64,000 nt of DNA, taken from NCBI GenBank assembly GCA_001002135.1, contig LCLP01000001.1:361114-425113 (forward strand). Reading direction: 5' to 3'. Positions within the stretch are counted from its first letter, which is position 1; each line of letters begins with the position of its first letter. This document shows, piece by piece, positions 33,718 to 64,000 of this stretch. This DNA is from Candidatus Pacebacteria bacterium GW2011_GWA1_46_10 (GTDB taxonomy: Bacteria; Patescibacteriota; Microgenomatia; UBA1400; PJMF01). A model generated the notes under the pieces. It was not told where the DNA came from. It searched no databases and saw nothing but the letters and a program-made list of their open reading frames with translations. The position numbers were made by a program, and so were the translations under genes.

Positions 33718-33723
33718 AGGGGT

Positions 33724-41280: not shown

Positions 41281-41286
41281 TACAAT
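41281..41286 (+). promoter_or_regulatory. candidate -10 hexamer (TACAAT, inside TACAATAGG) 6 nt upstream of ATG 41293; no Shine-Dalgarno sequence. Candidate promoter of the long plus-strand glycosyltransferase operon
   Basis: The AT-rich 225-bp divergent intergenic region 41027-41250 precedes cagTACAATAGGctcATG. Confidence 0.3.
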
Positions 41287-41292
41287 AGGCTC

Positions 41293-42201
41293 ATGGCACA
41301 CCATAAACTCTCAGTGGTGATTCACACCAAAAATGCCGCTGAGACGATTGAAAGAGCTTTGCGGTCAGTCGAGTTTGCCGATGAGAAAGTCATCATCGAC
41401 ATGCACAGCACTGATCAGACAGTGAAACTGGCCAAGCGGTTTACCAAACGCATTTACCTCCATCATGACGTCGGCTACGCTGATCCGGCCAGAAACTTTG
41501 GCCTGAAAAAAGCTCGGTTTGACTGGATTTTAGTGTTGGATGCCGATGAGAAGGTTTCACCTGAATTGCGGGCAGTAATTGAAGCTACTTTGGCCGAGCC
41601 CAAAGCAGATGTGTATTATTTGCCGCGCCAAAACTTTGTCTTTGGCCAATGGATTTTGCGGACCGGTTGGTGGCCAGACTATCAACCGCGTTTGTTTAAA
41701 AGGGGGACTGTTTCTTGGCAAATTGGGGTCCACCGGTTGCCTGATATCATAGGGTCTGTGGCGTATTTTCCGGCCGAAGAGCGATTTGCGTTAACTCATT
41801 ATAACTACACCACGGTCGCTCAGTTTATTGATCGATTGAACGCGTATACAACACTGCAAGCTCAGGAAAGACTGGCCGCTTCACCTCAAGATCATTTTTC
41901 CACCAGAGAGTTGCTGGAGATTTTTGGTGGCGAGTTTGCCAAACGCGCCCTGACTTTGGATGGTGTCCAAGATGGTTTTCATGGTGTGTCGCTGTCTTTA
42001 CTCCAAGCGATGTATGAGTCGGTGGTGTACCTTAAGCAGTGGGAAGAGAAAGGCTTTAGCCAAGCTGGGTCGGGGGATTTTGGCGCGGCTTTGACTCGAG
42101 TACAGCAAGTGTGGCGTTATTGGTGGGCCGATTACATGGTCCGGCAAACGGGAGGAATCAAACAGTGGTACTGGCGGGTGCGCCGGAAACTGATGGTGTG
42201 A
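41293..42201 (+). CDS. glycosyltransferase family 2
   Basis: KLSVVIHTKNAAETIERAL...LDADE GT-A fold. The track's 41251 start is TTG; ATG 41293 is preferred. Confidence 0.7.
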   Translation: MAHHKLSVVIHTKNAAETIERALRSVEFADEKVIIDMHSTDQTVKLAKRFTKRIYLHHDVGYADPARNFGLKKARFDWILVLDADEKVSPELRAVIEATLAEPKADVYYLPRQNFVFGQWILRTGWWPDYQPRLFKRGTVSWQIGVHRLPDIIGSVAYFPAEERFALTHYNYTTVAQFIDRLNAYTTLQAQERLAASPQDHFSTRELLEIFGGEFAKRALTLDGVQDGFHGVSLSLLQAMYESVVYLKQWEEKGFSQAGSGDFGAALTRVQQVWRYWWADYMVRQTGGIKQWYWRVRRKLMV

Positions 42202-42207
42202 TTATTT

Positions 42208-43941
42208 ATGGAGCATTTCATACAAAAATATCAGAGATGGATCTTGGGACTGATCATTATCTTGGCAGTCTTTGTTCGTTTTTATCAGCTTGGCCAGGTG
42301 CCCATTGAGTTGACTCGCGATGAGGCCTCGCTGGGGTTTACTGCTTTTTCCTTACTCGAAACCGGTCGTGAAGAGCATGGCACTTTCTGGCCGGTACAGA
42401 TTGAGTCTTTTGGCGATTGGAAATTGCCGCTGTATGTCTATACTTTGATTCCGTTTATCAAGCTTTTTGGGTTGACGATGTGGTCTGTCCGGCTGCCAAG
42501 CGCTTTGGCAGGAGTGAGTATCGTTGTGAGTAGTTTTTACCTTGTTTCACTGCTGACTCAAGACAAGAAGTATCGACTGTGGCTGAAACTTGGTGTACCA
42601 CTTCTCTTGGCTGTTTCGCCCTGGGCGGTTCATTTTGGCCACGTGGCGTATGAAGCGCACCTGTCCTTGGCTGTTTTCTTGTGGGGGCTAGTCGGCGTTT
42701 TAACCGTGATTCGGGATTTTGAGGCCCACCAACAACGGCGGCTGGGGCGTTTGATTAGTTCACTGTGTCTTTGGTCGCTGACTCTCTTGGGCTATCACGC
42801 TTACCAAGTATTTGTGCCGCTGTTGGTGGTGTTTGTTGGCTGGGTGTATTGGTCGACGTGGCGGCGGTTTTTCGGGGTAAAACGAAGGTTGCTGTTTGGC
42901 GTGGCCGCGCCTTTTGTGATAGTTGGGTTGTTACTATTGGGGAGTGGGGCGCAGGGAGCAAATCAAGTAAAGTTCAGCGGGCTTTCGATCTTTAGTTTAG
43001 AAGCTTACACCAAAGTGGTGGATAGTGCTCGAAAAGCTTTCAGTGATCCAAGCAACCCCTTTTTTGTTTTAGCGGCTAATAAAGTCGGTGCATTTTTTGA
43101 ACAAGTGCAAACAAATTTTTTCCGATTGATCTCACCAGAATTTTTGTTTTTACAGGGTGGAGCAAATCACGGCCACAATATTACAGGATTTGGAAATTTT
43201 TATCCTCTAATATTTTTCGGTCTGGTAGTTGGGATAGCTTCAATTATTATAGAACGTAAACAATGGTTGTATTTATTGGGCAGTTGGGTGGTAGCGGCCA
43301 GTGTGGCCCCGATGATTACTTTTGAGGCTAATCACACTACCCGTTTTTCGCCTGGATTTGTGGTGCTAGAAATTCTCTCGGTCTATGGTTGGGTTAAAAT
43401 AATCAAAACTGTCCGAAAAACACTTGGCAAAGTATGGCTGATGTTATTTTTATCGGCTCTTACTCTAGGCCTATCCTATAGTGTGTATCGTTTCTTGATT
43501 CATTATTATTTTGTTTTTCCGGTTCGAGATGCTCAATATTGGTTGTGGCAGATTAAACCGATTGTTTATTTTGTTAATGAGGTGAAAGCAGACTATGATG
43601 CAGTTTACATTCAAGATGAGAAATATTCGCCCTATACCTATTTTTTGTTTTACGAACCAGGCAATCCAGCTCAACTTTCACAGCGGATCGAGTATTACCC
43701 GGCAGATTTTGAGGGTTTTCGTCATGTGAGACGGCTCGATAACATCTATTTCCAAACCATTAATTGGGATGATCAATTGCTGTATGCTGACCAAAAAGTA
43801 TTGTTTGTAGTGGAAGAAAATAAAATGCCTGAACACCTTTCTTCACGATCGACTACAAAGCTCTTGATGACTTTAAAGCATGAATGGGTCCCAAAAGGTG
43901 TTGAAGTTTGGGAGTATCAGGGTTTATCTCTGGAAAAATAG
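42208..43941 (+). CDS. GT-C membrane glycosyltransferase, ArnT/PMT-like (paralog group A)
   Basis: Loop-1 LTRDEASLGFTAFSLLETGREEHGTFWPVQIESFGDWKLPLYVY..., about 12 TM helices, and a C-terminal soluble domain. Confidence 0.65.
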   Translation: MEHFIQKYQRWILGLIIILAVFVRFYQLGQVPIELTRDEASLGFTAFSLLETGREEHGTFWPVQIESFGDWKLPLYVYTLIPFIKLFGLTMWSVRLPSALAGVSIVVSSFYLVSLLTQDKKYRLWLKLGVPLLLAVSPWAVHFGHVAYEAHLSLAVFLWGLVGVLTVIRDFEAHQQRRLGRLISSLCLWSLTLLGYHAYQVFVPLLVVFVGWVYWSTWRRFFGVKRRLLFGVAAPFVIVGLLLLGSGAQGANQVKFSGLSIFSLEAYTKVVDSARKAFSDPSNPFFVLAANKVGAFFEQVQTNFFRLISPEFLFLQGGANHGHNITGFGNFYPLIFFGLVVGIASIIIERKQWLYLLGSWVVAASVAPMITFEANHTTRFSPGFVVLEILSVYGWVKIIKTVRKTLGKVWLMLFLSALTLGLSYSVYRFLIHYYFVFPVRDAQYWLWQIKPIVYFVNEVKADYDAVYIQDEKYSPYTYFLFYEPGNPAQLSQRIEYYPADFEGFRHVRRLDNIYFQTINWDDQLLYADQKVLFVVEENKMPEHLSSRSTTKLLMTLKHEWVPKGVEVWEYQGLSLEK

Positions 43942-43956
43942 TATAATAAAGCCGAC

Positions 43957-44874
43957 ATGGAACACTTAACGACTATCATTGTCAATTACAACACCCCCAA
44001 AGAAACTGAGTTAGCGATTCGCTCGGCGGTTAATGCCACGGCGGAAGATTTTACCCATCAAGTGATCGTGGTTGATAACGGTTCCAAGGAGCCGCTGCGA
44101 CTGCCTAAAGATTTACGGAAAGCCAAAGTAGAATTGATTAGAAGTGAGTCAAATCTTGGTTTTACTGGTGGTAACAACCTTGGGATGAGCCACGCGGTCA
44201 AACAATACCAAACTGACTATTTTTTACTTTTAAACTCTGATGCCATCGTGGAAAAACAGGCCATTCAAGCCCTTTACAATGCACTGAAAGCTGATCCTAA
44301 GACTGGCATTGCTGTATCAAAAATCTACTTTACTCCAGGTTTAGAGTTTCACCGAAAAAGTTATAAAAAGTCAGAGCGAGGAAAAGTGTTGTGGTTTGCT
44401 GGCGGCAGTATTGATTGGGCGAATATAGCCGCTTTTCATCGCGGAGTAGATGAGGTGGATCGGGGACAATATGATGAGCAAAAGAGCTGTGACTTTGCCA
44501 CGGGTTGCGCGCTCTTAGTCAAAAGAGTGGTGACTGAACACGTTGGGATCTTGGATAAACGCTTTTTTTTGTACGCTGAGGATGTTGACTTCAGTTTAAG
44601 AGTGAGAAAGGCTGGGTATAAAATTGTTTTTGTGCCTCGGTCAATAGTGTGGCACATGAATAGCGGTTCGGTGGCTGGCGGAGCTGGTTCCAAAACACAA
44701 CAATATTACCAAACTCGCAACCGCTTACTTTTGGCCGCCAAACACGGTAGCTGGCGCCAGCGTTTAACGGGTTTACGACTAGCCTTTCAAACACTTACTC
44801 GAGGGAATGACGCGGAACGGAAAGGGGTGGTTGATTTCTTTTTACTCCGTTATGGGAAACAGCCAATTGTATGA
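43957..44874 (+). CDS. glycosyltransferase family 2 (rhamnosyltransferase-like)
   Basis: TIIVNYNTPKETELAIRS...VVDNGS...LLLNSDAIVE. Confidence 0.75.
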   Translation: MEHLTTIIVNYNTPKETELAIRSAVNATAEDFTHQVIVVDNGSKEPLRLPKDLRKAKVELIRSESNLGFTGGNNLGMSHAVKQYQTDYFLLLNSDAIVEKQAIQALYNALKADPKTGIAVSKIYFTPGLEFHRKSYKKSERGKVLWFAGGSIDWANIAAFHRGVDEVDRGQYDEQKSCDFATGCALLVKRVVTEHVGILDKRFFLYAEDVDFSLRVRKAGYKIVFVPRSIVWHMNSGSVAGGAGSKTQQYYQTRNRLLLAAKHGSWRQRLTGLRLAFQTLTRGNDAERKGVVDFFLLRYGKQPIV

Positions 44875-45692: not shown

Positions 45693-45696
45693 CGGT

Positions 45697-46818: not shown

Positions 46819-46821
46819 AGT

Positions 46822-47676
46822 ATGTCAACATCACTTTCACCTGTTTCCGCTGTCATTCCGACCTATAACGGCCGGCGGTTATTGGCAAAGCACCTGCCGG
46901 CAGTTTTTGCTTGTTTGAGCAATGGTGATGAATTAGTCATCGTGGAAGACGCTGGCCCAGATGATACAGTGCCTTGGACAACCAAGCAGTTTCGGTTACG
47001 AGCCGCTCGTGCACCCATTGCCGGCGTGAATGTCTCTCGTGGCAATTACACCAGTGGTCGCAAAAAAATAGCAGTGACCTTAGTCGTCAATCAACAAAAC
47101 CAACGGTTTGGGGAGACCTCGAATCGCGGAGTAAAAGTGGCCAAGCACCCGTTAATTTTTCTTATTAACAGTGATGTGGCCCCCAGAAAGACGGCCTTGA
47201 AGTATTTGGTGCCGTATTTTAAAGACCAGACTGTTTTTGCGGTTGGACTCTTGGAAAATGAACATGGCAAAAAAAGCGGGAAAAATAAATTGTGGTTTGA
47301 AAGAGGTATGTTTATTCATGCCAAGGCAGATAATTTTAAAGCCGGTCCTACGGCGTGGGTGAGTGGCGGCAGTGGTTTGTATAGTCAAGAAAAATGGTTG
47401 GAGATCGGCGGTTTTGACCGACTATTTTACCCGGCGTATTGGGAGGATATTGATCTCTCATTTCAAGCGCGCAAACGCGGTTGGCAAGTGCTTTTTGAGC
47501 CGAAAGCGGTGGTCGATCACAACCACGAAACGACGAATATTACTGTGTTTGGTCAGCGAAAAATGGAACAAATGAGTTGGCGCAATGCCAGTAAGTTTGT
47601 TTGGAAAAATGGAGATTTTTGGCAAAAGTTAGCCCACCTTTTATGGAAACCATACTGGTGGATTATCCGAAGTTAA
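46822..47676 (+). CDS. glycosyltransferase family 2
   Basis: VSAVIPTYNGRRLLAKHLPAV... and a DxD-type region (INSDV). Confidence 0.65.
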   Translation: MSTSLSPVSAVIPTYNGRRLLAKHLPAVFACLSNGDELVIVEDAGPDDTVPWTTKQFRLRAARAPIAGVNVSRGNYTSGRKKIAVTLVVNQQNQRFGETSNRGVKVAKHPLIFLINSDVAPRKTALKYLVPYFKDQTVFAVGLLENEHGKKSGKNKLWFERGMFIHAKADNFKAGPTAWVSGGSGLYSQEKWLEIGGFDRLFYPAYWEDIDLSFQARKRGWQVLFEPKAVVDHNHETTNITVFGQRKMEQMSWRNASKFVWKNGDFWQKLAHLLWKPYWWIIRS

Positions 47677-50984: not shown

Positions 50985-51001
50985 GTTGGCTATAATTTTA
51001 C

Positions 51002-52753: not shown

Positions 52754-52777
52754 CGGTAATTCTGCTACGATGGTGGC

Positions 52778-54445
52778 ATGCCAAATTGGCGTTTTCTGTT
52801 AGCAGTGGGGCTTGTCTTTTTATTGGCAATTGCTTTGCGCTTCTATCTTTTGGGGAGAGTGCCGGTTTCTTTGTATTGGGATGAAACAGCGATTTTAGTT
52901 GATGCTCGTAGCATCGCCGCTACTGGTCAAGACATGCACGGCAACTCTTGGTTGCAGGCAATTCTTCCGTCGTATGGGGACTATAAACTGCCGGTGTTGA
53001 TTTGGTTGGCGAGTTTAAGTGTCAAGCTACTGGGCGCTACTGAGTTGGCTGTTCGTCTGCCGAGTGCCTTGAGTGGAATCTTGACCATGATTTTTGGAGG
53101 GTTGATTGCCGGGGAGTTGTTGGTTTCGACTAAAAAATTGAGGTGGTGGCTGTTTGTGCTCACTGCGGCGGTGATCGCGATCGCGCCCTGGAGTGTGTTA
53201 TTTTCTCGGACCGGTTTTGAGGGTCACGTGGGTCAGTTATTGTTGGCAGTAAGTATTTGGTGTGCCCTGAAGGCCAGAAAGCAATGGGGCTGGGGGATTT
53301 TAGCGGCGCTGATTGGCGGCCTGGCCACCTACACGTACTTTTCGATTCGTTTTGTGTGGCCGGTGGTGTTTTTCTTAGTGGTAACTCTTTTTACCGTCAA
53401 GAAAACTTGGCGCTCGTTTTTACTTCAGCTTGTTGTGCCGTTCTTACTCTACGCTGTGAGTCTGCGGCCGATGTATCAGTCGCCTTTGTATGAGGCAAGC
53501 AACCAGTTTCGTTTGAGTGCTACTTCTGTTTTGAATATGGCTGATTGGCCAATCGTCGCTAATGAATATAAACTGCCAGCCGGCAACACCCTGCTTGATA
53601 AAGCGATGTACCACCCATGGGTCTTGATTAGCCGAGAATTGGCGAAAAATTACGCCGACAACTTATCATTTGATTTTCTGTTTTTAACTGGTGATCCTAA
53701 TTTACGGCATGGGACGGGCCGCCACGGACTCTTTTTATGGCCGTTTTTCCTGCCTTTGGTGTATGGTTGGTACACCCTGTTTCCCAAGTTTTGGCGGCAG
53801 GGCGTATTACTGTTGGGTTGGTGGCTGGTGGCTTTACTGCCGGCCTCGGTGCCGGAAACGACTCCTCATGCCTTGCGCTCGCTTAATGCCTTAATGCCGC
53901 TTTCTCTCGTCATCGCCTGGGGCGTGTGGCAGTGGTGGCGGGTGACCTGGCAAGCTCGTCAACGCCAATGGTTGGAAAAAGGAATTTTTTTGGTTTGGAG
54001 TATGGCAGTCGGTTTAGCGCTTTTCGATTTTGTCACGTATTATTTTCAAGTGTACCCAGCCTTGTCAGCCAAAGAGTGGCAAGACGGATATAAAGCAGTG
54101 GCCCATGAAGCGTGGGTTAATCGAGCAGATATGGATGTAGTTTGGGTAGAGCCGTTTGACCCTCGTTTTTACTTGTGGTTGTTGGCATATGAAGTGCCGG
54201 TACAAGAGTATCGTCAAATCTCTTTTAATAATTACATGCCCGAAGCGATTGAAAACATTCGTTTTCGCTGGTTTGACTGGGGAAAACTGCCGACTTTAAG
54301 TGAAAAAACCATGCTGTTGGCTCGCAAAGACTTGATTGACTGGAATCTGGAGACTGCTGCCTATCCGCCGCGGTGGTATAAACCACTAGTTCGTGCTGAT
54401 AAAGTGGCAGAGTTTGCCGCGGTGTACTTTGAGAAAGTTGAGTGA
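52778..54445 (+). CDS. GT-C membrane glycosyltransferase, ArnT/PMT-like (paralog group A)
   Basis: LYWDETAILVDARSIAATGQDMHGNSWLQAILPSYGDYKLPVLIW.... Confidence 0.65.
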   Translation: MPNWRFLLAVGLVFLLAIALRFYLLGRVPVSLYWDETAILVDARSIAATGQDMHGNSWLQAILPSYGDYKLPVLIWLASLSVKLLGATELAVRLPSALSGILTMIFGGLIAGELLVSTKKLRWWLFVLTAAVIAIAPWSVLFSRTGFEGHVGQLLLAVSIWCALKARKQWGWGILAALIGGLATYTYFSIRFVWPVVFFLVVTLFTVKKTWRSFLLQLVVPFLLYAVSLRPMYQSPLYEASNQFRLSATSVLNMADWPIVANEYKLPAGNTLLDKAMYHPWVLISRELAKNYADNLSFDFLFLTGDPNLRHGTGRHGLFLWPFFLPLVYGWYTLFPKFWRQGVLLLGWWLVALLPASVPETTPHALRSLNALMPLSLVIAWGVWQWWRVTWQARQRQWLEKGIFLVWSMAVGLALFDFVTYYFQVYPALSAKEWQDGYKAVAHEAWVNRADMDVVWVEPFDPRFYLWLLAYEVPVQEYRQISFNNYMPEAIENIRFRWFDWGKLPTLSEKTMLLARKDLIDWNLETAAYPPRWYKPLVRADKVAEFAAVYFEKVE

Positions 54446-56004
54446 TGAAAAAACATTTTTGGCTGGCATTAATTTTGGCAGTGGCTTTGGTGATGCGTGT
54501 CTGGCGAGTTGGGAATTTGCCGGCGATCTTAAACCGTGATGAAGCAGCGGTAGCTTATAACGCGTATTTGCTGATGGAAACGGGGAAAGATGAATGGGGT
54601 CGTCGTTGGCCGTTAGCGCTAGAGTCGTTTGGCGACTATAAACTGTCAGGGTATTCGGTGGTTTTAGTCCCGTTTTTTCAGCTGTTTGGGCTTCATGATT
54701 GGGTGGTGCGTTTGCCATCGGTGATGGCCGGTACAGTCTTGGTTTATTTATTGTATTTATTGGGAAAGAAACTGAAGTTAGGTGAACAGTACGCGCTGTT
54801 ATTAGCTCTCTTGGCAGCGGTGGCACCAGTCTTTGTTTTTTACTCGCGAATGGCCTTTGAGGCCAATCTCGGCTTAACCTTTTTTGTTGGCGCACTGCTG
54901 GTGTTGTGGTGCTTAAAGGACCAGACAAAAAAATGGCAGTATCCGCTTTTATTCCTCTTGCTTTTGTCGGCGGTCTTGACGTATAACACGCCGCTTTTAT
55001 TGTTGCCGTTAGTCATGGTGTGGGTTGGTTTGACCTATGACTGGCGTCAATGGGGGAAGCTAGTCGCCACGGAAGGCATTTTGGGGGGAGTATTGCTGTT
55101 TGGGGTGCTCGCGCTTTGGCCAGTCACTGCTCAAAAGAGCGGTATTACCATTTTTACCGATGAGACGGTTTGGAGTCAGTGGACGATTTTTCGCGGGTCA
55201 TTGTCACTGTTCTGGCAACCACTGATCGGCAGCCGGTCTTTTTATTACCTGGTCATTATGCTGCAAAACTTTTTCAATTCTTTTTCTTTCAACTTTCTCA
55301 GTTTAAGGGGTGGGACGCATCCTTGGCATAGTTTGCCGACAACTGGTCACTTGGCAACTGTTACTTATTTACTGGGGTTGTTGGGTATTTTCAAGACGAG
55401 TGCTACTGTTTGGCTTGGTCGGCGAAAGCTTCGTGCGATCAAAAGCGAGCTTGGTCTGCTGTTTTTGCTGATTGCCTCACTGCTGCCGGCCATTATCACT
55501 GTTGACGCGCCGCACGCTACCAGAAGTCTCCTCTTTTTTGTCTTGTGGCATGTCTTGGCGGTATGGGGGGCGGTCTGGTTAATCAAGGTATTTTTTCAAA
55601 AGAATAGCAGTGCCGCGTGGCGATGGCTACTTTTTTTAGTGGTTGTTGAGGGGCTATTGCATGCCTATCAGTTATTTGGCTTGTACCCCAATCAACAGAC
55701 GGTTTTTCAACCTGGTTTTGATCAGGTAATTCAACGAGTTGAGCGAGAGCACGGGGCGGAGAACGTGGCGATCGTTGATCCGACCGGGTATTGGTATATT
55801 TTAACAGCTTGGTACTTGCAGCTTTCGCCGGCCGTGTATTTTGAAACTGCTGTCCGACAACTACCAGACCCGATTGGTTTTCGCTATGGCGAGCGTGTCG
55901 GCCGGTACCATTTTATTGCTCGGCCCGATGACCGCTCAAGTGGGGAGACAGTCTTGGTACAATGGTCTGACCAAGCGAGTGCTTGGCAAATCGAGGAGAA
56001 CTAA
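54442..56004 (+). CDS. GT-C membrane glycosyltransferase, ArnT/PMT-like (paralog group A, tandem duplicate)
   Basis: LNRDEAAVAYNAYLLMETGKDEWGRRWPLALESFGDYKLSGYSV.... ATGA overlap with the upstream paralog. Confidence 0.65.
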   Translation: MMKKHFWLALILAVALVMRVWRVGNLPAILNRDEAAVAYNAYLLMETGKDEWGRRWPLALESFGDYKLSGYSVVLVPFFQLFGLHDWVVRLPSVMAGTVLVYLLYLLGKKLKLGEQYALLLALLAAVAPVFVFYSRMAFEANLGLTFFVGALLVLWCLKDQTKKWQYPLLFLLLLSAVLTYNTPLLLLPLVMVWVGLTYDWRQWGKLVATEGILGGVLLFGVLALWPVTAQKSGITIFTDETVWSQWTIFRGSLSLFWQPLIGSRSFYYLVIMLQNFFNSFSFNFLSLRGGTHPWHSLPTTGHLATVTYLLGLLGIFKTSATVWLGRRKLRAIKSELGLLFLLIASLLPAIITVDAPHATRSLLFFVLWHVLAVWGAVWLIKVFFQKNSSAAWRWLLFLVVVEGLLHAYQLFGLYPNQQTVFQPGFDQVIQRVEREHGAENVAIVDPTGYWYILTAWYLQLSPAVYFETAVRQLPDPIGFRYGERVGRYHFIARPDDRSSGETVLVQWSDQASAWQIEEN

Positions 56005-56795
56005 TGATTTCGGTTGTGTTAGCCACCTATAACGAAGCAGCTAATTTGGCTCGCTGTTTGGTGTCGGTCGACTCCTTTGCCGATGAAATTATTGTGGTGG
56101 ATGGCAGTTCAACTGATGACACTCGCCGCATTGCTAAAAAATTTGGCGCCAAAGTAATCAAGACAACGAATAAATTAAACTTTCATATCAACAAACAAAT
56201 GGCGATGGACCGGGCAAAAGGCGAGTTGGTGTTGCAGATTGACGCTGATGAAGTGGTTGATGAGGAGCTGGCGCGGTTTATCCGATCGGTGGAGAAACAA
56301 CGCCGAAAGTCGTCGTTGGCGACGGCGGCTTGGTGGATCAGGCGAAAAAATCTTTTTCTTGGGCGCTGGTTGACGAAAGGAGGTCAGTATCCTGATCCAG
56401 TAATCAGACTCTATATCAATGGACGAGCCAAGTTACCCCAAGCTGATGTGCACGAGCAAATGGCAGTGGACGGGCCGCTTGGCTGGGCTAACGGTCACCT
56501 GCAACACTATGCCAACCCGACTTTTACCGATTACGTGCGCAAGTTTAATACCTATACTTCTTTTCGAGCACAGTTGTGGGCTAAGGAGGGCTGGCGATTA
56601 TCACTATGGCGGTCGGTCTACTACTTACTGTGGAAGCCAATCGAGATCTTTCTTTCCCTTTACGTGCGTCATAAAGGATTCTCTGATGGGTACCCAGGTT
56701 TTGTGTTTGCTCTAATGAGTGGTCTTCACTACCCAGTGGCTTACCTTAAATGGTGGGAAATAAAACAAGGAAAAAGGCGTGAAAGTACGTATTAA
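56004..56795 (+). CDS. glycosyltransferase family 2
   Basis: MISVVLATYNEAANLARCL...VVDGSSTDDT...IDADE. ATG 56004 forms a TAATG overlap with the upstream stop; Shine-Dalgarno sequence GAGGAG. Confidence 0.75.
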   Translation: MISVVLATYNEAANLARCLVSVDSFADEIIVVDGSSTDDTRRIAKKFGAKVIKTTNKLNFHINKQMAMDRAKGELVLQIDADEVVDEELARFIRSVEKQRRKSSLATAAWWIRRKNLFLGRWLTKGGQYPDPVIRLYINGRAKLPQADVHEQMAVDGPLGWANGHLQHYANPTFTDYVRKFNTYTSFRAQLWAKEGWRLSLWRSVYYLLWKPIEIFLSLYVRHKGFSDGYPGFVFALMSGLHYPVAYLKWWEIKQGKRRESTY

Positions 56796-57816
56796 CGTAA
56801 CACCGCTCTCCTCGGGCCACGCCATCAGGGGGGTGGGTATGTATACTCGTTTTCTCAGTGAGGCTTTGGAGCGCCAAAAAGGTATTGAGATCTTTCACTC
56901 CGGTTTGGAGAACCAACCAACTAAGGTGGACGTTGTTCACTATCCTTTTTTTGACCTTTTTTTTCCAACACTGCCAATTCTCAAAGGGACGAGCACCGCG
57001 GTCACGATTCACGACGTTATTCCGTTGTTGTTTGCTGATCACTATCCGGTAGGAAAAAAAGGTACTTTAGGTTTAGCCCACCAAAAACTCGCTCTCAAAA
57101 CTGTGGCAGCAGTGATTACCGATTCCGAAGTTTCCAAACGCGATATTATCACTCACCTTGGAGTGCCAGCGGAAAAAATACATGTGGTTTATTTAGCTGC
57201 TAACCCGTTTTTACACCAAATCAGCGGGAAAGCCTTGATCGCTGCTTCGCGCAAGCTTCATCTTCCTAAGCGCTATATCTTGTACGTTGGAGACATCAAC
57301 TACAACAAAAATCTGCCGCAACTCATTAAAGCACTGAAATTTTTGCCGCCTGAACTCAAATTGATCTGTGTTGGCAAGAATTTTACGCCGCAGCCGATTC
57401 CTGAGTGGCAAGCCATCGAGGCTCAAGTAGCTTTGAGCAATGTCGGCAAACAGATCGTGTTTATGCCCCAAGTTTTGAGCGATGATTATGAGGCGCTCTC
57501 GGCTGTTTACTCTGGGGCGGTCGCCTATGTTCAGCCATCGCTCTATGAAGGTTTTGGTTTACCGGTGCTGGAAGCCATGCGCTGCGGCACACCGGTGGTG
57601 GCGGCCCGAAACTCTTCTTTGCAGGAAATTGGTGATGAGGCAGTGCTTTTTACTGGCAATACAGCCGAAGAATTAGCTGGCAGTATTGAAGAATTATTAA
57701 GTTTTTCCAACCACCAGCGCGTCCAACTCATCAAAAAGGCTTCTCATTGGGAGCAACAATTTACTTGGGATAAGACGGCTCAGCAAACGATTGAAGTGTA
57801 TAAAAAAATGCTATGA
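56779..57816 (+). CDS. glycosyltransferase family 4 (GT-B fold)
   Basis: 345 aa. C-terminal EGFGLPVLEAMRCGTPVV GT4 signature. Confidence 0.7.
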   Translation: MKVRINVTPLSSGHAIRGVGMYTRFLSEALERQKGIEIFHSGLENQPTKVDVVHYPFFDLFFPTLPILKGTSTAVTIHDVIPLLFADHYPVGKKGTLGLAHQKLALKTVAAVITDSEVSKRDIITHLGVPAEKIHVVYLAANPFLHQISGKALIAASRKLHLPKRYILYVGDINYNKNLPQLIKALKFLPPELKLICVGKNFTPQPIPEWQAIEAQVALSNVGKQIVFMPQVLSDDYEALSAVYSGAVAYVQPSLYEGFGLPVLEAMRCGTPVVAARNSSLQEIGDEAVLFTGNTAEELAGSIEELLSFSNHQRVQLIKKASHWEQQFTWDKTAQQTIEVYKKML

Positions 57817-59447
57817 AAAAGAGGTTGTTCTTTATTATTGCTGTTTTGTTACCGCTACTAGCGCTGACTCGACCATACCTTCGAGCAGGTGTGCCATACA
57901 CTCATGACGGTGAAAACCATTTAGCTCGTTTTGCCAACTATAAAGTGGCGGTCAGAGAGGGCCAAGTTCCCCCTCGCTTTGCCCCGAATTTAATGAATCA
58001 TTACGGCTATCCAGTATTCAACTATAACTATCCACTGCTTAATATGCTGTCACTGCCACTCAGTATCATTGGCATCCACTACGAACTCACTTTTAAGTTT
58101 CTAATGATTGGTGGTTTAGTGCTTGGAGCTTGGGGGATTACTCGTTGGTTGGCGGTGAGTGGTTTTTCTCGCCGTGCCAAGTTATTTGCGGTTGGCACTT
58201 ATATGCTGGCGCCGTTTACCGTGAACCTTATTTTTGTGCGCGGTAATATTGGGGAGGTTTGGGCCTTGGCGCTTTTCCCGTGGCTACTGTGGTTTTCCAA
58301 GATGATTAAACAACGAACAAGAGTGAGTTGGTTGGTCAGTGTGTCACTGATTACAGCTTTTTTGCTGTCGCACAACGTCTCGGTACTTTTTGGTGGAGTG
58401 TTGTGGTTTCTTTATACTCTCAAAGAATTCGGCAAGCAGAAAGCATTATGGAAAGTCTGGTTGGGTCCGGTAGTAATCTCAGTGTTACTCAGTCTGTGGT
58501 TTTGGTTGCCGGCTGTGGCTGAAAAAGGGTTTATCGTGGTGGATGATGCCAACTTGAGTTCGCAGTTTGCCACCCATTTTGTTCAGCCGTTACAGCTTTT
58601 GGCCTCACCCCTGCGGTTTGGTTATTCGTTTGAAACAGCGGTTGACACCATTAGTTTTTCGGTTGGGGCAATTGGTTTTGCCAGTTTAGTACTGATGACG
58701 GTATGGTTACTGCGATTGCGCAAGACGGACCGCCGTCACCTTGATCGGTACCGATTATGGTTTTTTGTCATTGTTTGCTGGGGATTGCTCTTTTTGCAGA
58801 CTGACTTTTCGTACCAAGTGTGGCGCTTCCTGCCACTCGTGGCATTCATTCAGTTTCCATGGCGTCTGACATTATTTTTTGTGGTGTTAGTTTTACCGCT
58901 GGTAGCGACACTGTTTACTCACTTAAAAAAAGTCCGTTGGCTATTGTGGGCACTCTTTTTCGGGCAGCTGATGGTGTTGTGGCGCTTACAACCAATCGCT
59001 TTTTTGCATCAGACGCCAGAACAATATGATCTTTTTCCACAAAGCACGAGTACTCTCAACGAAAATTTGCCTAAAGGATTTACGTATTTACTGATTGGTG
59101 ATTGGCAACCGGCCCCAAGCGCACTGGTGGGTGAATTTACAGCCAACGTGGCTGATTGGACAGGGTCTCGTCGGTACTACCACCTCAATGTAACTCAAGA
59201 TGCCTTGGTGGTGGAACCAACGATGTATTTTCCGGGTTGGGAAACGACGATCAACGGGGAGTTGATAGAGTATGTTGATGTGAGTGAAGCTGAGGGACGA
59301 CTAGGTTACCGCTTGCCAGCAGGTGAGTATGAGGTCGAAACCCGTTTTACCCAAAATACTTGGCCAAGAATGGTGGGCAACAGTCTCAGTGTGCTGGCGG
59401 TAGCAATCTGGGGGTGGCTGGTATGGCGAGAAAAACAAGTCTCCTAA
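57813..59447 (+). CDS. large polytopic membrane protein with C-terminal domain (GT-C-like, uncharacterised family); paralog of 33724..35502
   Basis: YTHDGENHLARFANYKVAVREGQVPPRFAPNLMNHYGYPVFNYNYPLLNML shares the H-x(n)-R...GYG/YGYP-F-FY-PL pattern with the 33724 gene. At least 10 TM helices. Confidence 0.45.
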   Translation: MKKRLFFIIAVLLPLLALTRPYLRAGVPYTHDGENHLARFANYKVAVREGQVPPRFAPNLMNHYGYPVFNYNYPLLNMLSLPLSIIGIHYELTFKFLMIGGLVLGAWGITRWLAVSGFSRRAKLFAVGTYMLAPFTVNLIFVRGNIGEVWALALFPWLLWFSKMIKQRTRVSWLVSVSLITAFLLSHNVSVLFGGVLWFLYTLKEFGKQKALWKVWLGPVVISVLLSLWFWLPAVAEKGFIVVDDANLSSQFATHFVQPLQLLASPLRFGYSFETAVDTISFSVGAIGFASLVLMTVWLLRLRKTDRRHLDRYRLWFFVIVCWGLLFLQTDFSYQVWRFLPLVAFIQFPWRLTLFFVVLVLPLVATLFTHLKKVRWLLWALFFGQLMVLWRLQPIAFLHQTPEQYDLFPQSTSTLNENLPKGFTYLLIGDWQPAPSALVGEFTANVADWTGSRRYYHLNVTQDALVVEPTMYFPGWETTINGELIEYVDVSEAEGRLGYRLPAGEYEVETRFTQNTWPRMVGNSLSVLAVAIWGWLVWREKQVS

Positions 59448-60571
59448 ACACGCTGTTGATTACCGTCATAGTCTGGCGGTTAGCTTTGCTGGGGTTGGGC
59501 GCAGTGGGTGATCACTTTTTGCCGTATAACCCTTCTTTTCCTTACGCGCGAGAGTTGTTAGCGAAGCTGAACCTACCTCGTTGGCTCTATTCCTGGGGAA
59601 GTTTTGATGGTGTGCACTACCTAGGGATTGCCCAAAACGGTTATACAAACACGGCGTTTATTCAAGCTTTTTTTCCGGTTTTTCCCTTGCTGTTGCGAGT
59701 CTTTGCCAATCCTTTACTCTCAGGTTTGGTGCTCAATGTACTGCTCATTGTATGCTTGGCGTTAGTGTGGCATCAGTTAGTACTGCTGGATCAGACCCAA
59801 AAACAAGCTCGATGGTCGCTCCTGGCGCTGTTGCTGTTTCCGACCAGTTTCTTTTTTGGGGCACTCTATACTGAAACCTTGTTTTTACTACTCGTTATCG
59901 GCTCACTGCTGATGGCTCGTCGTAAACAGTGGCAGTGGGCCGGCAGTTTGGCCGCCGTCGCTTCAGGCACCCGTATTATTGGTATTTTTCTCTTACCAAC
60001 ATTACTGGTTGAGCTTTGGTGGCAGCGCAGGCCAAGCTCGGTTCAGCAGTTTTTGACCAAAAATACGCGCGAGTTCAAGTATATTGCTTTGTCGCTCTTG
60101 GGTTTGGCAGTGTATATGTTTTATCTCTGGCTCACCTTTGCTGATCCACTCTATTTTCTGCACGTGCAGAGTGAATTTGGCAGTGGCAGGCAGGAGTCAC
60201 TGATACTTTTTCCGCAAGTAATCTGGCGGTATGTGAAGATTCTCTGGACGGCACGGCCTTTTGATTGGAAATATTTTGCCTATGCGCAAGAGTTTATTTT
60301 GTCGCTAGGGGTGTTGAGCGGACTTTTGATCTGGTTTAAAAAAATTCGTCCTTCATATCTGATATTTTCACTGTTGGCGTTTTTCTTGCCGACGGTAACA
60401 GGTACCCTGACCAGTATGCCACGCTATGTGCTGATGTGTTTTCCGATTTTTCTTTTACTTGGCGAGCTTTTCGCCAAGAAACCGCTGTGGCGCGCTTTTC
60501 TCCTGACAGCCTCCGTAATTTTGCTTATAATCAACACCGTCCTGTTTATTCAGGGATATTGGGTAGCGTAA
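59423..60571 (+). CDS. PIG-V/Gpi18-like (GT76-type) mannosyltransferase-family membrane protein
   Basis: WGSFDGVHYLGIAQNGYTNTAFIQAFFPVFP resembles the W-D-x-x-H/W-F-L-x-IA-x-x-GY loop motif of PF04188 proteins. About 8 TM helices. ATG 59423 is preferred over the track's 59360. Confidence 0.45.
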   Translation: MARKTSLLNTLLITVIVWRLALLGLGAVGDHFLPYNPSFPYARELLAKLNLPRWLYSWGSFDGVHYLGIAQNGYTNTAFIQAFFPVFPLLLRVFANPLLSGLVLNVLLIVCLALVWHQLVLLDQTQKQARWSLLALLLFPTSFFFGALYTETLFLLLVIGSLLMARRKQWQWAGSLAAVASGTRIIGIFLLPTLLVELWWQRRPSSVQQFLTKNTREFKYIALSLLGLAVYMFYLWLTFADPLYFLHVQSEFGSGRQESLILFPQVIWRYVKILWTARPFDWKYFAYAQEFILSLGVLSGLLIWFKKIRPSYLIFSLLAFFLPTVTGTLTSMPRYVLMCFPIFLLLGELFAKKPLWRAFLLTASVILLIINTVLFIQGYWVA

Positions 60572-60575
60572 AAAT

Positions 60576-61496
60576 ATGAAAATTCTCGTCACTGGCGGTG
60601 CTGGCTTTATTGGTTCTCATGTGGCCGATGCGTACATCAAACTTGGTCATGAAGTGGTTATAGTGGACAATCTTTCCACCGGCAAGAAAGAGTTTGTCAA
60701 TCCGAAAGCAGAATTTGTTGAAGCCGACATTGCCGACCGAGAAACAATTCAAAGTATTGTCAGCGTGCAGCGACCGGAAGTGATTAATCATCACGCCGCG
60801 CATATTCAAGTGGGCCACTCGGTGGAAGATCCCCAGTTTGATGCTACAGCCAATATTTTGGGCACTTTGAACATCATGGAAGTTGCCCGGCAAATCCCGG
60901 TTAAAAAAGTCATTTTCGCTGCGACCGGGGGAGCGATGTATGGCAATAAGCCCACCCCATTTGATGAGTCGATGAAAGAGGAGCCACTCTCACCCTATGG
61001 TATTTCCAAGCGGGCGGCTGAACTCTATTTCAATTATTACTACGAATTGTACAAAATTCCCTATGTTTCCCTGCGTTACTCCAATGTTTATGGCCCGCGC
61101 CAAAATCCGCATGGGGAGTCGGGAGTAGTGGCTATTTTCGCTGAGGCAATTATGGCAGGGAAGACGCCCGTGATTAATGGTGATGGCACTCACACTAGAG
61201 ATTATGTCTATGTCAGTGACGTAGTGGGGGCTAACGTGCTGGCACTAACCACTGATTTTGTCGGCGAACTGAATATTGGTACCAAAACAGAAATTAGTAC
61301 GAATGAAGTGTTTGATAAAGTGACCACGGAGTTTGGCAAACACCTGGAGCGCCAATACGGCTCTCCCCGCCCGGGGGAGCAGGTAACCAGCTCTTTGGAT
61401 TACTCAAAGGCCAAGCAGAAACTTGGTTGGGAACCAAAAGTTACTTTTGATGAAGGGGTACAACTGGTTGCTAATTGGTATAAAAATCGGCGTTGA
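60576..61496 (+). CDS. NAD-dependent nucleotide-sugar epimerase (GalE/UDP-hexose 4-epimerase-like)
   Basis: MKILVTGGAGFIGSHV Rossmann motif, an SPYGISKRAAE (YxxxK) catalytic motif, and NVYGPRQ. Confidence 0.75.
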   Translation: MKILVTGGAGFIGSHVADAYIKLGHEVVIVDNLSTGKKEFVNPKAEFVEADIADRETIQSIVSVQRPEVINHHAAHIQVGHSVEDPQFDATANILGTLNIMEVARQIPVKKVIFAATGGAMYGNKPTPFDESMKEEPLSPYGISKRAAELYFNYYYELYKIPYVSLRYSNVYGPRQNPHGESGVVAIFAEAIMAGKTPVINGDGTHTRDYVYVSDVVGANVLALTTDFVGELNIGTKTEISTNEVFDKVTTEFGKHLERQYGSPRPGEQVTSSLDYSKAKQKLGWEPKVTFDEGVQLVANWYKNRR

Positions 61497-61523
61497 CCGA
61501 TTAATCCCGTATAATAGCCACTT

Positions 61524-62207
61524 ATGGCGGCCAAATCCATACTTTTCTCTAAGACCTGGATTGTCATTCCTGGTTTTAACGAAGCCAAGTATTTAGCCAC
61601 TGTCCTCAAGAAAACCCTCAAGCAAACGCCGCGGATTATTTATGTCGATGATGGTTCGCATGATCACTCGGCTCAAATCGCTCAAAAATATCTTGAACAC
61701 GTCATCATCCACGAAGTCAATCTTGGGAAAGGCGCGGCGCTCAAGACTGGCTGCGACTATGCTTTTAACTTCCTCAAGGCTCAAGCAGTCATTCTAATGG
61801 ACGCGGACGACCAGCATAATCCAGCCGAGATTCCACTGTTTGTCCAACAACTCAGGAAAGGCAGTCAAGTAGTATTGGGTGCCCGGTCGCTGTTTTCCAA
61901 AATGCCCTTAGTCCGTAAAATCGGTAATGCTTTCACCTCGGCGGTGATGCTAATCTTGTTTTGGCGTTATATTCCGGATATTTTGTCCGGCTATAAGGCT
62001 TTTACGAGGCGCGCGTACCGCAAACTTTACTGGGAGGCGACCGACTACAGTGTGGAACTGGAGATCGCTGCCAAAATCGCCATGAATCGGTTACAATTCT
62101 CCTTAGTGAGCATCAAAACGATTTATCACGATCTGGATCGAGGGATGAGTATTATTGATGCGATCAAAGTAGCACTAAAAATCGTGAGTCTCAGATTGGG
62201 ATTATGA
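61524..62207 (+). CDS. polyprenol-phosphate glycosyltransferase (GT2, GtrB/ArnC-like)
   Basis: IVIPGFNEAKYLATVLKKTL...YVDDGSHDHS...MDADDQHNP; a short (227 aa) GtrB-type GT2. Confidence 0.7.
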   Translation: MAAKSILFSKTWIVIPGFNEAKYLATVLKKTLKQTPRIIYVDDGSHDHSAQIAQKYLEHVIIHEVNLGKGAALKTGCDYAFNFLKAQAVILMDADDQHNPAEIPLFVQQLRKGSQVVLGARSLFSKMPLVRKIGNAFTSAVMLILFWRYIPDILSGYKAFTRRAYRKLYWEATDYSVELEIAAKIAMNRLQFSLVSIKTIYHDLDRGMSIIDAIKVALKIVSLRLGL

Positions 62208-62536
62208 GTATTTTTCAAATCATTGCCGTTTTTTTTGCGCTGCTGATGCTCTATATCACTCGCGTGCACACCTTGCGTCAGCGTTTCTCCATGACCGAAA
62301 CCTTTTTTTGGTACTCGTTGTGGTTAGTGTTCATAGTGGTGGCGGTTTTCCCGGATTTACTGCGCGGCATCAGTGACTTATTGCACTTCTCCCGCGTGTT
62401 TGACTTGTTGGTGGTAGGAGCGTTAATGGTGTTAACGGTGGTGGTGGTGCTTAATTATTTCCAGCAGCGAGCCAATGGTCGTAAGTGGGAAGAATTTATT
62501 CGTCAGCGCGCGATCGACCACACCAAAAAGAAGTAA
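62204..62536 (+). CDS. DUF2304-like small membrane protein (partner of the GT2 just upstream)
   Basis: 110 aa with three TM helices (MSIFQIIAVFFALLMLYITRV...). ATGA overlap with the preceding GT2. Confidence 0.45.
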   Translation: MSIFQIIAVFFALLMLYITRVHTLRQRFSMTETFFWYSLWLVFIVVAVFPDLLRGISDLLHFSRVFDLLVVGALMVLTVVVVLNYFQQRANGRKWEEFIRQRAIDHTKKK

Positions 62537-62540
62537 AGAG

Positions 62541-63344
62541 ATGGATTTTTTTATTGTCACGCCGTCTTTTAACCAACGGCGCTTTCTTCAGCAAACGATT
62601 GACAGTGTGTTGCGTCAAAAGGGCGATTTTACAGTAACCTATTGGGTCTTTGATGGCGGTTCGACCGATGATAGTCAAACTCTTTTAAAAAAATACAACA
62701 GGCGTTTGCGGTGGCAATCAAAAAAAGACAAGGGCCAAACAGCTGCCATTAACAAAGGTATCAAACAACTGAGGGTTTGGCTCAAAAAAACGAAAAAAAA
62801 TCCTGACGAAGTGATTTTTGCGTACCTTAATTCCGATGATTATTATTTGCCGGGTGTTTTTCAATTGGTCGCCAAGCTTTTTGCCCGCACCCACCAAACT
62901 TGGCTGGTTGGCGATTGTCTGATTGTCAATGAGCGCGGCCGAGTGATCCAATCGTGGGTGAGAAAATACAAGCAATTTTGGCGTTTTTGGCTCTCACCGT
63001 CACTGTTGGGCGTTTTAAACCCTATTCCTCAGCCTGGTGTTTTCATCAAAGCCTCCCAAATGCTTAAAATCGGCTTGTTTGATGAGAGCTTGAGGTATGT
63101 GATGGATTATGATTATTGGTTTCGGTTGTTCGCGCAGAGTGGCCGGCCAATAATCACCTCACGGGCTTTAGCGGCTTTTCGTATTCACTCGCAGTCAAAA
63201 GGCGGTAGTCAGTTTCGCCGTCAGTTTGCGGAACAACAGCAAGTGGCAAAAAAGTATCTAGCTAACTCTTTTTTATTAGGACTACAAGTCATTCATAATA
63301 TGCTCATAAACTTTTTATATCAAATGATGAAGACAAATTTATAA
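62541..63344 (+). CDS. glycosyltransferase family 2
   Basis: MDFFIVTPSFNQRRFLQQTIDSVL...FDGGSTDDS...NSDDYY. ATG 62541 with AAAGAG upstream; the track's 62475 start overlaps the upstream gene. Confidence 0.7.
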   Translation: MDFFIVTPSFNQRRFLQQTIDSVLRQKGDFTVTYWVFDGGSTDDSQTLLKKYNRRLRWQSKKDKGQTAAINKGIKQLRVWLKKTKKNPDEVIFAYLNSDDYYLPGVFQLVAKLFARTHQTWLVGDCLIVNERGRVIQSWVRKYKQFWRFWLSPSLLGVLNPIPQPGVFIKASQMLKIGLFDESLRYVMDYDYWFRLFAQSGRPIITSRALAAFRIHSQSKGGSQFRRQFAEQQQVAKKYLANSFLLGLQVIHNMLINFLYQMMKTNL

Positions 63345-63396
63345 TGCGAAGCATTGTAGGCACGTATAATGAGGTGATTTGATAGTGAGTAAAACA

Positions 63397-64000
63397 ATGA
63401 TCACTTTTTTTAAAAAATTTTTTCTGAGTCCAGTCATATGGATTTTGCTGGCGTCAGTGTTGTTTATGTCGCCGATGTTGTTATACCCAACCTTTAATTA
63501 TATTGATGATGGACAAACTTTACTGACCGGCAAAACTTTATTAGCGACAAATGATTGGTCGATTTGGCAGAAAAGTTTGTTTGAGTATGAAAACGGCCGT
63601 TTACGGCCAGCGTATCAATTGTACTTGCTGTTGATGTACCTTTTATTTGATGTTCGTCCGCTGGGGTATTGGTTGTCTCAGACTTTAGTCTTGGCTCTGA
63701 CTTTACTTGGTTTGCGGGCGCTGATTAAGCAACTTACCCAAGCAAAGGAGTGGGTGATTGGTCTTGCTTTGACCATATTTTTACTCTTGCCCGCGACCAT
63801 TGAAAATCTCTACCGGTTGGGTACAGCGGAGCCTCGCCAAACTCTCTTTCTGGTTTGGTTTTTGGTTTGGTTGAGTAAACTCAACCTGAAGCGCTTTAAC
63901 TGGCAAAGTCTAGCGCTGGGGAATATTCTTTTACTCTTGGCTTTGGCGACCAAGGAAACTTCTGTTTTGGTCTGGCCGATGATCGCGATTTTTTTTGTTT
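63397..64000 (+). CDS. GT-C-like polytopic membrane glycosyltransferase, 3' partial at the window edge
   Basis: MITFFKKFFLSPVIWILLASVLF...DDGQTLLTGKTLLATNDWSIWQ... An N-terminal TM helix plus a D-rich loop is followed by further TM helices. The ORF runs off the window. Confidence 0.4.
   Translation, partial: MITFFKKFFLSPVIWILLASVLFMSPMLLYPTFNYIDDGQTLLTGKTLLATNDWSIWQKSLFEYENGRLRPAYQLYLLLMYLLFDVRPLGYWLSQTLVLALTLLGLRALIKQLTQAKEWVIGLALTIFLLLPATIENLYRLGTAEPRQTLFLVWFLVWLSKLNLKRFNWQSLALGNILLLLALATKETSVLVWPMIAIFFV

Follow-up and report, generated by a model that had tools for sequence, protein, structure and literature searches.

The stretch of DNA analyzed here (the window) comprises 64,000 nt of contig LCLP01000001.1 from Candidatus Pacebacteria bacterium GW2011_GWA1_46_10, and its last part, from position 41293 onward, is a block of plus-strand genes rich in glycosyltransferases (GTs), numbered g01 to g20 in their order (Table 1) and conserved in Patescibacteria from groundwater that are related to this organism. 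The positions of promoter-like motifs and their conservation in related genomes suggest that the block is probably a terminator-free, co-directional supra-operon of about seven nested sub-operons, and not one exceptional operon with a single promoter. An initial annotation of the window had proposed a single co-translated transcript of more than 22 kb. The co-directional, packed and overlapping genes of that proposal were confirmed, and the conserved order and the lack of convincing intrinsic terminators agree with it as well, while a sole promoter at 41.2 kb is not supported, in view of the internal boxes described below.

Gene starts were curated by comparison with those called on a public contig of identical sequence. 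The listing of open reading frames (ORFs) over 38–64 kb showed that every long ORF from 41251/41293 to 64000 is on the plus strand, and the reported number of about 20 genes corresponds to 19 complete genes and one cut at the window end. The distances at the successive junctions from g01 to g20 are +6, +15, -4, +4, +3, 0, -4, +20, +24, -1, -1, -17, -4, -25, +4, +27, -4, +4, and +52 nt. Hence, the genes are on one strand with short intergenic distances at all 19 junctions, as expected of a single operon, but the gaps span a slightly wider range than the -4 to +25 nt given before, from -25 to +27 nt, with +52 nt before g20. The seven start/stop junctions named in the initial annotation are all present, with ATGA at 44871, 49275, 57813, and 62204, TAA abutting ATG at 47677, GTGATG/TGATG at 54442/54445, and TAATG at 56004. 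The AT-rich 225-bp gap at 41027–41250 also exists and is divergent from the minus-strand membrane gene 39857–41026, but the PMT_2 match of that gene, described before as PMT-like, is weak (E = 0.013). The Pfam matches agree with the proposed content of family 2 (GT2), family 4 (GT4) and C-type (GT-C) glycosyltransferases: GT2 was matched by g01, g03, g04, g06, g12, g17, and g19, GT4 by g05 and g13, and PMT_2 by g07, g10, and g11. Matches to ArgS, NAD-dependent epimerase, DUF2304 and a PTPS_related/YfhO-like membrane domain (in g14) were found as well. The start/stop overlaps fit polycistronic expression with translational coupling within sub-blocks, and the genes of the block are presumably co-transcribed. 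Tight one-strand packing is also seen elsewhere in the window, in the minus-strand runs 18301–28529 and 29613–33651.

When the 25 nt preceding each start were inspected, a -10-like box was present in all gaps of at least 15 nt. All six perfect TATAAT hexamers on the plus strand of the 23-kb block are located within 60 nt upstream of a gene start, versus 13 of 124 control hexamers of the same composition (Fisher p = 4.5e-6). As this zone makes up 5.2% of the block, the corresponding binomial p value is 2e-8. A -10 score of at least 5/6 ending 5–10 nt before the codon was observed at 4 of the 20 gene starts, compared to none of 93 internal in-frame ATGs. When the whole window was considered, a long ORF opened with an ATG 4–12 nt past TATAAT in 6 of 16 cases, while this was so for 5 of 604 controls. 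The same excess was observed in close relatives (11/88 versus 22/3158 controls) and in more distant Patescibacteria (12/162 versus 70/5390 controls).

We compared the block with contigs of six close, species-level relatives (L007, L008, L009, L010, L021, and L024) and two more distant ones (L018 and L025). In the six close relatives the order of g01 to g18, including the place of argS, is collinear at 47–79% protein identity. TATAAT is located 7–10 nt before argS in all six and in L025, also where relatives have other genes inserted upstream of argS, and it is found 9–11 nt before the g03 ATG in the five that span this junction (L007, L009, L010, L021, and L024). Before g10, 6/6 relatives have TG(C/T)TA(C/T)NAT, then exactly 6 variable nt, and then the ATG. 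Thus, the boxes of g03, argS, and g10 hold their distance to the ATG in five to six relatives, while the spacer sequence varies. The TATAAT upstream of g16, which is formed by the last codons of g15, is kept at the nucleotide level in L008, L009, L010, and L021. In L008 g15 was lost, but its last ~85 nt with the box were retained upstream of g16, and L024, which has no g16 downstream, lost the hexamer. The initial annotation had stated that an internal promoter, for example before argS, would refute its single transcript; such an element is now found at the sequence and comparative level, as the conserved TATAAT 8 nt before the ATG, and not as a transcription start site (TSS).

These data bear on the alternative that one promoter at 41.0–41.3 kb produces a single transcript of more than 22 kb and about 20 genes, with the internal TATAAT hexamers being either non-functional or AU-rich spacers that enhance translation. 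This explanation agrees with the uniform strand, the tiny gaps, the conserved collinearity, and the lack of internal terminators, as well as with the sequences resembling Shine–Dalgarno (SD) motifs, GGAG/AAGGA, which stand between TATAAT and the g03 ATG in some relatives. On the other hand, it does not explain why the hexamer is at junctions in 6/6 cases, why hexamer and spacing are exactly conserved, including the TGnTACGAT before g10, which is not AU-rich, or why the g16 box persists after the deletion of g15. It is also at odds with the relatives that have kept the argS box even though insertions with opposite-strand ORFs separate argS from g08. In place of the promoter-free interior expected of a single operon, conserved boxes were found before g03, argS, g10, and g16, and window-specific ones before g17 and g20. 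We consider a single transcript from one promoter to be quite improbable.

Several observations weigh against the supra-operon and its proposed function. A match to the -10 consensus alone is no proof of promoter activity, and, apart from CTGACA before g16, neither a scan nor manual reading revealed a clear -35 box ahead of any internal -10 element. Because of these missing -35 boxes, full sigma-70 promoters are not claimed. The g01 box was found in one relative only, L007, which shares AAAAAACAGTACAAT, located there 7 nt before the g01 ATG, while the g17 box is specific to the window and was not found in L010 or L021. Since the SD-like sequences in several relatives lie within the 9–11-nt spacer between TATAAT and the g03 ATG, this conserved region may partly serve translation initiation on read-through mRNA. 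The region 40.8–52.8 kb gave 23 terminator hits versus 14 expected (z about 2), all of them weak and intragenic, and the terminator scans covered the intrinsic hairpin type, with Rho-dependent termination outside their scope. Regarding function, no GT of the block reached an NCBIfam equivalog cut-off.

The terminator scan inside the block, which the initial annotation had suggested as a check, showed no credible intrinsic terminator, as expected of a single operon, and only weak, mostly intragenic hairpins were found. The numbers of hits were 23 versus 14±4, 18 versus 16±4, and, downstream, 14 versus 10.5±3 expected from shuffling. As a positive control, a bidirectional intrinsic terminator with a 12-bp stem containing 7 GC pairs and a T-tract was detected at 11421–11448, after recJ at the convergent recJ/DsbA-like junction, which shows that the organism uses Rho-independent terminators. 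The lack of a credible terminator in the block, despite this textbook one, makes read-through from upstream units plausible. It would even be probable, because the 15–27-nt gaps lack room for a terminator and none is detectable.

The same observations argue against the possibility that the block consists of fully independent co-oriented units, brought together by leading-strand bias and genome compaction, separated by Rho or inefficient termination, and yielding no long polycistronic RNA. The promoter boxes at every gap of at least 15 nt speak for such units, and so do the interspersed housekeeping genes (argS, and trmD elsewhere in the surrounding region) and the tolerance of relatives to insertions at the boundaries. 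The GC skew, positive on the plus strand window-wide, is consistent with replication co-orientation. However, the narrow gaps without terminators in an organism that uses strong intrinsic ones elsewhere, and the order that is strictly conserved over 18 genes in L021, make this explanation unlikely.

Hence, the data are best described by the supra-operon, in which transcription would start at g01 and at six or more internal sigma-70-type -10 elements, located in each gap of at least 15 nt. The predicted sub-operons are g01–g02, g03–g08, argS alone, g10–g15, g16 alone, g17–g19, and a unit starting with g20. The TSSs predicted from the boxes are at about 41293, 43955, 51003, 52778, 60538, and 61522. 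Four internal boxes end 6–9 nt before the ATG, and the mRNAs derived from these promoters could be leaderless or nearly so. Upstream transcripts would read through, so that nested transcripts would overlap one another in the way known from the dcw cluster of E. coli, while termination–reinitiation could couple translation at the 4-nt, 1-nt, and 0-nt start/stop junctions within sub-operons. Within the block, argS appears to be an embedded housekeeping gene served by a candidate promoter of its own. A functional reason for its clade-wide embedding between GT-C genes, such as an Arg-tRNA-dependent modification of the envelope, is a speculation to which we assign very little probability.

The geometry expected of leaderless mRNAs, that is a -10 hexamer that ends about 6–10 nt before the start and leaves no room for an SD sequence, was found for g01 (+6), g10 (+6), argS (+8), g17 (+8), g03 (+9), and trmD (+7). 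The trmD gene (28597–29274, plus strand), which encodes the tRNA m1G37 methyltransferase, is located within a minus-strand run of sugar-nucleotide genes and overlaps two spurious minus-strand ORFs, and it is correctly marked by TATAAT, 7 nt, and ATG. Genes led by SD sequences coexist with these, for example the one after AAGGAGG before 8892. The pattern resembles leaderless mRNAs of Actinobacteria and Deinococcus-Thermus, where a TANNNT/TATAAT box ends 6–10 nt before the ATG without an SD sequence, and here it marks first genes of predicted units, including argS and trmD. It differs in the Patescibacteria lineage and in the coexisting SD-led genes. The chances appear evenly balanced that this lineage uses conserved promoters of the -10-only or extended -10 type, located 6–10 nt from the ATG, to drive its envelope-glycan supra-operon and dispersed housekeeping genes like argS and trmD. 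Leaderless mRNAs would then be a major, so far undescribed mode of expression in Patescibacteria, beside SD-led genes and translational coupling. The literature searched contained nothing relevant on leaderless mRNAs or glycan operons tied to the candidate phyla radiation (CPR)/Patescibacteria, which says nothing about the literature beyond it.

Among known systems, the E. coli dcw (mra) cluster is a supra-operon in which internal promoters are superimposed on upstream read-through and which has no internal terminator. The block is similar in its ~16–20 packed co-directional envelope genes, the lack of an internal terminator, several internal (here predicted) promoters, and the gene order conserved across species. 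It is different in that it contains GT genes instead of peptidoglycan and division genes, and in the leaderless geometry of its predicted internal promoters. Loci such as cps of S. pneumoniae, the capsule loci of Klebsiella/E. coli, the PS loci of Bacteroides, and eps of B. subtilis measure 16–30 kb, so that the size of the block, which had been called unusual for a glycan operon, is unexceptional, as is its packing. The block shares with such long polysaccharide operons (cps, capsule, O-antigen, Bacteroides PS, epsA-O) a length of 15–30 kb, co-directional genes, GT2/GT4 enzymes, sugar-nucleotide enzymes, and Wzx. These operons, among them the Klebsiella/E. coli capsule and O-antigen loci with ops/RfaH and the Bacteroides PS loci with UpxY, are often treated as one transcript. 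They have a long 5′ leader with a processive-antitermination element, which is usually relied upon, and a dedicated NusG paralogue. In contrast, the g01 box of the block is 6 nt from the ATG, the housekeeping argS is embedded, and no dedicated NusG-paralogue antitermination factor was seen in the window. With a leaderless g01, a processive-antitermination signal would have no 5′ leader in which to reside, which also argues against a single transcript. A Rfam search of the whole window at gathering thresholds gave tRNA-Gln only, and a search of 40950–41350 at E <= 1 found no riboswitch or leader RNA upstream of g01. At 41146–41176, some 110 nt ahead of g01, there is an AT-rich block, GAAAAATAATGGAAATATTTTAAAAATA, that L007 shares (~1815–1845) although its upstream neighbor is different (Wzx on the plus strand). 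This block may be an UP element or the site of a regulator.

The comparison with relatives also showed that the breaks and insertions in their gene order coincide with the predicted sub-operon boundaries, that is the presence or absence of g02, the junction of g08 and argS, the loss of g15, and the change after g15/g16. The g02 gene is absent in L007, L018, and L025, g15 is missing in L008, and the genes past g15/g16 differ in L024 and L009. Insertions of 0.3–2.9 kb, some with minus-strand ORFs, are located exactly between g08 and argS in L009, L010, L018, L021, and L024. L018 and L025 retain g01–g08/argS, while in more distant Patescibacteria argS is found in unrelated contexts. The ArgS relatives (58–65% ArgS identity) place the organism of the window within Patescibacteria, near Ca. 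Pacebacteria/Paceibacterota. Between g08 and argS, a conserved ~96-aa ORFan with TATAAT and a ~33-nt leader was noted in L009 (8180–8473) and L021 (9592–9882), and a ~355-aa ORFan directly upstream of argS in L009 and L024; Pfam searches with these inserted ORFans of L009, L021, and L024 gave no match. The GC content of 43001–44000, the 3′ half of g02, is 0.387, while adjacent bins have 0.45–0.50. This drop and the variable presence of g02 among relatives suggest that this gene may have been inserted more recently or may evolve fast. In L018 (4040–6568) and L025 (4346–6766), g06 and g07 form a single ORF of 806–842 aa, orthologous to 46822–49278 of the window, with the GT2 domain at the N-terminus and a C-terminal part that aligns to g07 over ~545 residues; a PMT_2 match was reported for L025 only. 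Such a fusion is a Rosetta-stone indication that a cytoplasmic GT2 and a membrane GT-C are functionally linked.

Beyond the window, the 256-kb Logan contig L001 (SRR29904084), which is 100% identical to 50576–64000, showed that the plus-strand run extends at least 7.5 kb further with seven genes. Two of them encode membrane paralogues, two are unknowns, and the other three encode a GT2, a methyltransferase, and a second epimerase. The epimerase protein is present on 24 public contigs, including the SRR29904084 Logan contig and the Rifle groundwater assemblies PRJNA268031. A 22-nt motif, TAWAATGAGGTRRTTTGATAGT, in which a -10-like box is followed by a GAGGT SD sequence, is located at 63365–63386 before g20 and again at L001:18496–18521 before a downstream gene of 364 aa. 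It may be a shared regulatory or 5′-UTR (untranslated region) element, as the products of the two genes are unrelated.

Table 1. Promoter-like elements, genes of the block, and genes of the surrounding island (positions in the window)
Feature	Position	Strand	Remarks
TACAAT, -10-like	41281..41286	+	6 nt before g01 ATG
TATAAT	43942..43947	+	9 nt before g03 ATG
TATAAT	50991..50996	+	8 nt before argS ATG, 5 nt before in-frame TTG
Extended -10-like TGCTACGAT	52763..52771	+	exactly 6 nt before g10 ATG
CTGACA-17 nt-TATAAT (11/12)	60503..60531	+	best full sigma-70-type match of block; inside g15 3′ end, 44 nt before g16 ATG
TATAAT	61510..61515	+	8 nt before g17 ATG
Two TATAAT (63340, 63365)	63340..63370	+	52-nt gap before g20; ~51 and ~26 nt from ATG; second followed by GAGGTG
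Intergenic region, AT-rich	41027..41292	.	between minus-strand membrane gene 39857-41026 and g01; no Rfam match
g01, GT2, 302 aa	41293..42201	+	Pfam Glycos_transf_2, 60 bits; paralogue of g04, g12
g02, GT-C (ArnT/PMT_2-like) paralogue, 577 aa	42208..43941	+	25-37% identity to g07/g08/g10/g11 (BLAST), alignment
g03, GT2, 305 aa	43957..44874	+	Pfam; 76-79% identity to orthologues
g04, GT2, 273 aa	44871..45692	+	Pfam; ATGA overlap with g03
g05, GT4, 373 aa	45697..46818	+	Pfam Glycos_transf_1
g06, GT2, 284 aa	46822..47676	+	Pfam; 0 nt to g07
g07, predicted GT-C, 533 aa	47677..49278	+	PMT_2 21.8 bits, under cut-off; paralogue profile matches ArnT 5EZM
g08, predicted GT-C paralogue, 569 aa	49275..50984	+	BLAST paralogy, alignment; ATGA overlap with g07
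argS (g09), arginyl-tRNA synthetase, 582 aa	51005..52753	+	three ArgS Pfam domains; same place in relatives
g10, predicted GT-C, 555 aa	52778..54445	+	PMT_2 30.9 bits, over cut-off
g11, predicted GT-C, 519 aa, alternative GTG start 54442	54445..56004	+	PMT_2 37.9 bits; L001 gene call
g12, GT2, 263 aa	56004..56795	+	Pfam; TAATG overlap with g11
g13, GT4, 345 aa, GTG start	56779..57816	+	Pfam; 17-nt overlap with g12
g14, polytopic membrane protein, PTPS_related/YfhO-like, 544 aa	57813..59447	+	PF10131, 43 bits; paralogue of gene 33688-35502
g15, membrane protein, weakly GT-C-like, 382 aa	59423..60571	+	DIE2_ALG10 E = 0.005; NCBIfam cell-surface glycopolymer family E = 3e-4
g16, NAD-dependent sugar-nucleotide epimerase, GalE-like, 306 aa	60576..61496	+	Pfam, NCBIfam
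g17, small GT2, polyprenyl-phosphate-sugar synthase type (PpgS/AglJ/DPM-like), 227 aa	61524..62207	+	NCBIfam PpgS 94.8 bits, under equivalog cut-off; Pfam
g18, DUF2304 small membrane protein, 110 aa	62204..62536	+	PF10066, 57 bits; ATGA overlap with g17
g19, GT2, 267 aa, alternative start 62475	62541..63344	+	Pfam; L001 gene call
g20, membrane protein, 520 aa, cut by window end	63397..64000	+	L001 12822-14384
Minus-strand island genes	19009-28529 and 29613-33651	-	two PMT_2, two GT2 (one with GtrA transmembrane (TM) domain), Gmd, two epimerase/reductases, UDP-glucose dehydrogenase, RmlD, SurE, RmlB, LCP (LytR-CpsA-Psr) ligase
GT2 with GtrA TM domain	24107-25282	-	island gene, GT2-GtrA fusion
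Plus-strand island genes	33688-39915	+	YfhO-like protein, Wzx flippase, unknown membrane protein, another PMT_2

The sequences predict that g02, g07, g08, g10, and g11 are ArnT/PMT_2-type GT-C paralogues. PMT_2 exceeds the gathering score for g10 and g11 and is below it for g07. Because Pfam gave no match for g02 and g08, these two were placed by paralogy, as both are 25–37% identical to PMT_2 genes in BLAST; g20 and the genes 36998–38569 and 20559–21785 were also without a Pfam match even at E <= 5. A profile of six sequences (the five paralogues and the PMT_2 gene 38569–39915) matched ArnT 5EZM with E = 8e-6. In all six aligned paralogues the first extracytoplasmic loop after TM1 contains an invariant E36 preceded by D or E. 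A PDB sequence search with g14 gave no meaningful match. Recent tandem duplication was ruled out as the origin of the block, because its paralogues are only 23–37% identical.

The g17 protein is not an equivalog of PpgS (NF058614, 94.8 bits versus a cut-off of 370), and is closest to the broad DPM/AglJ/PpgS class. It has an adjacent small membrane partner, the DUF2304 protein g18, which scores 57 bits versus a cut-off of 25.5 and is encoded with a 4-nt overlap; the M. tuberculosis partner Rv3632 is presumably a DUF2304 protein itself. In M. tuberculosis the PpgS–Rv3632 pair, with the epimerase Rv3634c nearby and Rv3779 as the GT-C (PMC3485146, PMC5389812), is similar to g17, g18, and the adjacent epimerase g16. 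More broadly, extracytoplasmic glycosylation systems of three components, a GT2 that acts as polyprenyl-P-sugar synthase, a small membrane partner or flippase, and a GT-C transferase, include ArnC/ArnT, GtrB/GtrA/GtrC, CsbB/GtcA/YfhO, Ppm1/Pmt, and PpgS/Rv3632/Rv3779. The locus resembles them in its several ArnT/PMT_2-like and YfhO-like membrane proteins and in the GT2 with a GtrA domain. It differs from them in having at least eight PMT_2-type and two YfhO/PTPS-type paralogues in one locus, in the lack of an equivalog-level match, and in the GT2–GT-C fusion of relatives.

In the proposed pathway, soluble GT2/GT4 enzymes, two sugar-nucleotide epimerases, and the PpgS-like GT2 together with the DUF2304 protein would produce sugars or oligosaccharides linked to polyprenyl phosphate, which would then be flipped across the membrane (a Wzx gene is located at 35499–37001). 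The five ArnT/PMT_2-type GT-C paralogues and the YfhO/PTPS-like proteins would transfer sugars outside the membrane, the acceptor most likely being a wall-linked glycopolymer (an LCP ligase gene is at 32497–33651) or surface proteins. The joint presence of the g17–g18 type, Wzx, the LCP ligase, and many GT2/GT4 genes points to a wall-linked glycopolymer as the most likely product. It would be put together on polyprenyl phosphate, and the GT-C paralogues would build or decorate it on the outer side of the membrane. The paralogues could instead be PMT-like protein O-glycosyltransferases with surface, pilus, or S-layer proteins as targets, and have no part in building or decorating a wall-linked polysaccharide. 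The PMT_2 and PMT matches in Pfam and the D/E-E motif of loop 1, conserved as in PMTs, would agree with such a role. However, the best match among solved structures is ArnT and not PMT, the LCP ligase, Wzx, and many cytoplasmic GT2/GT4 genes indicate a lipid-linked polymer, and no acceptor protein was identified, so that we regard protein O-glycosylation as a real but less likely alternative.

The block is the right-hand part of a cell-envelope glycan island of ~52 kb, with at least eight PMT_2-type and two YfhO/PTPS-type membrane proteins. In this island trmD is the second embedded housekeeping gene, with the same promoter geometry as argS. At the left edge of the island (17638–18957), the plus strand encodes a response regulator of the OmpR type and the minus strand a short ATPase fragment (218 aa) of a histidine kinase. 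The two have a tail-to-tail overlap, and the kinase appears to be truncated. The GC skew of the plus strand is positive in nearly every 1-kb bin of 1–64000, regardless of gene orientation, with a near-monotonic rise of the cumulative skew. A one-directional skew was reported for UBA1400 Microgenomates (PMC7143001).

The claim of a long operon is by itself of little consequence, as large co-directional glycan loci are common and the block is most likely modular. The sequence data suggest that the locus is of an ordinary kind, and the modestly interesting by-product is a promoter signal of the leaderless type that is conserved in this CPR lineage. The analysis yields a testable transcription map for an uncultured CPR lineage, whose promoters and modes of translation initiation are essentially uncharacterized. 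In these genomes, the assignment of start codons and strands is improved by the TATAAT-N6-10-ATG signal, which picked trmD in an ambiguous region. The ~52-kb island with at least 10 GT-C-type membrane glycosyltransferases, conserved over species-level relatives, represents a large investment of a small genome in surface glycans, and in presumed episymbionts such an investment bears on host attachment and on phage or host recognition.

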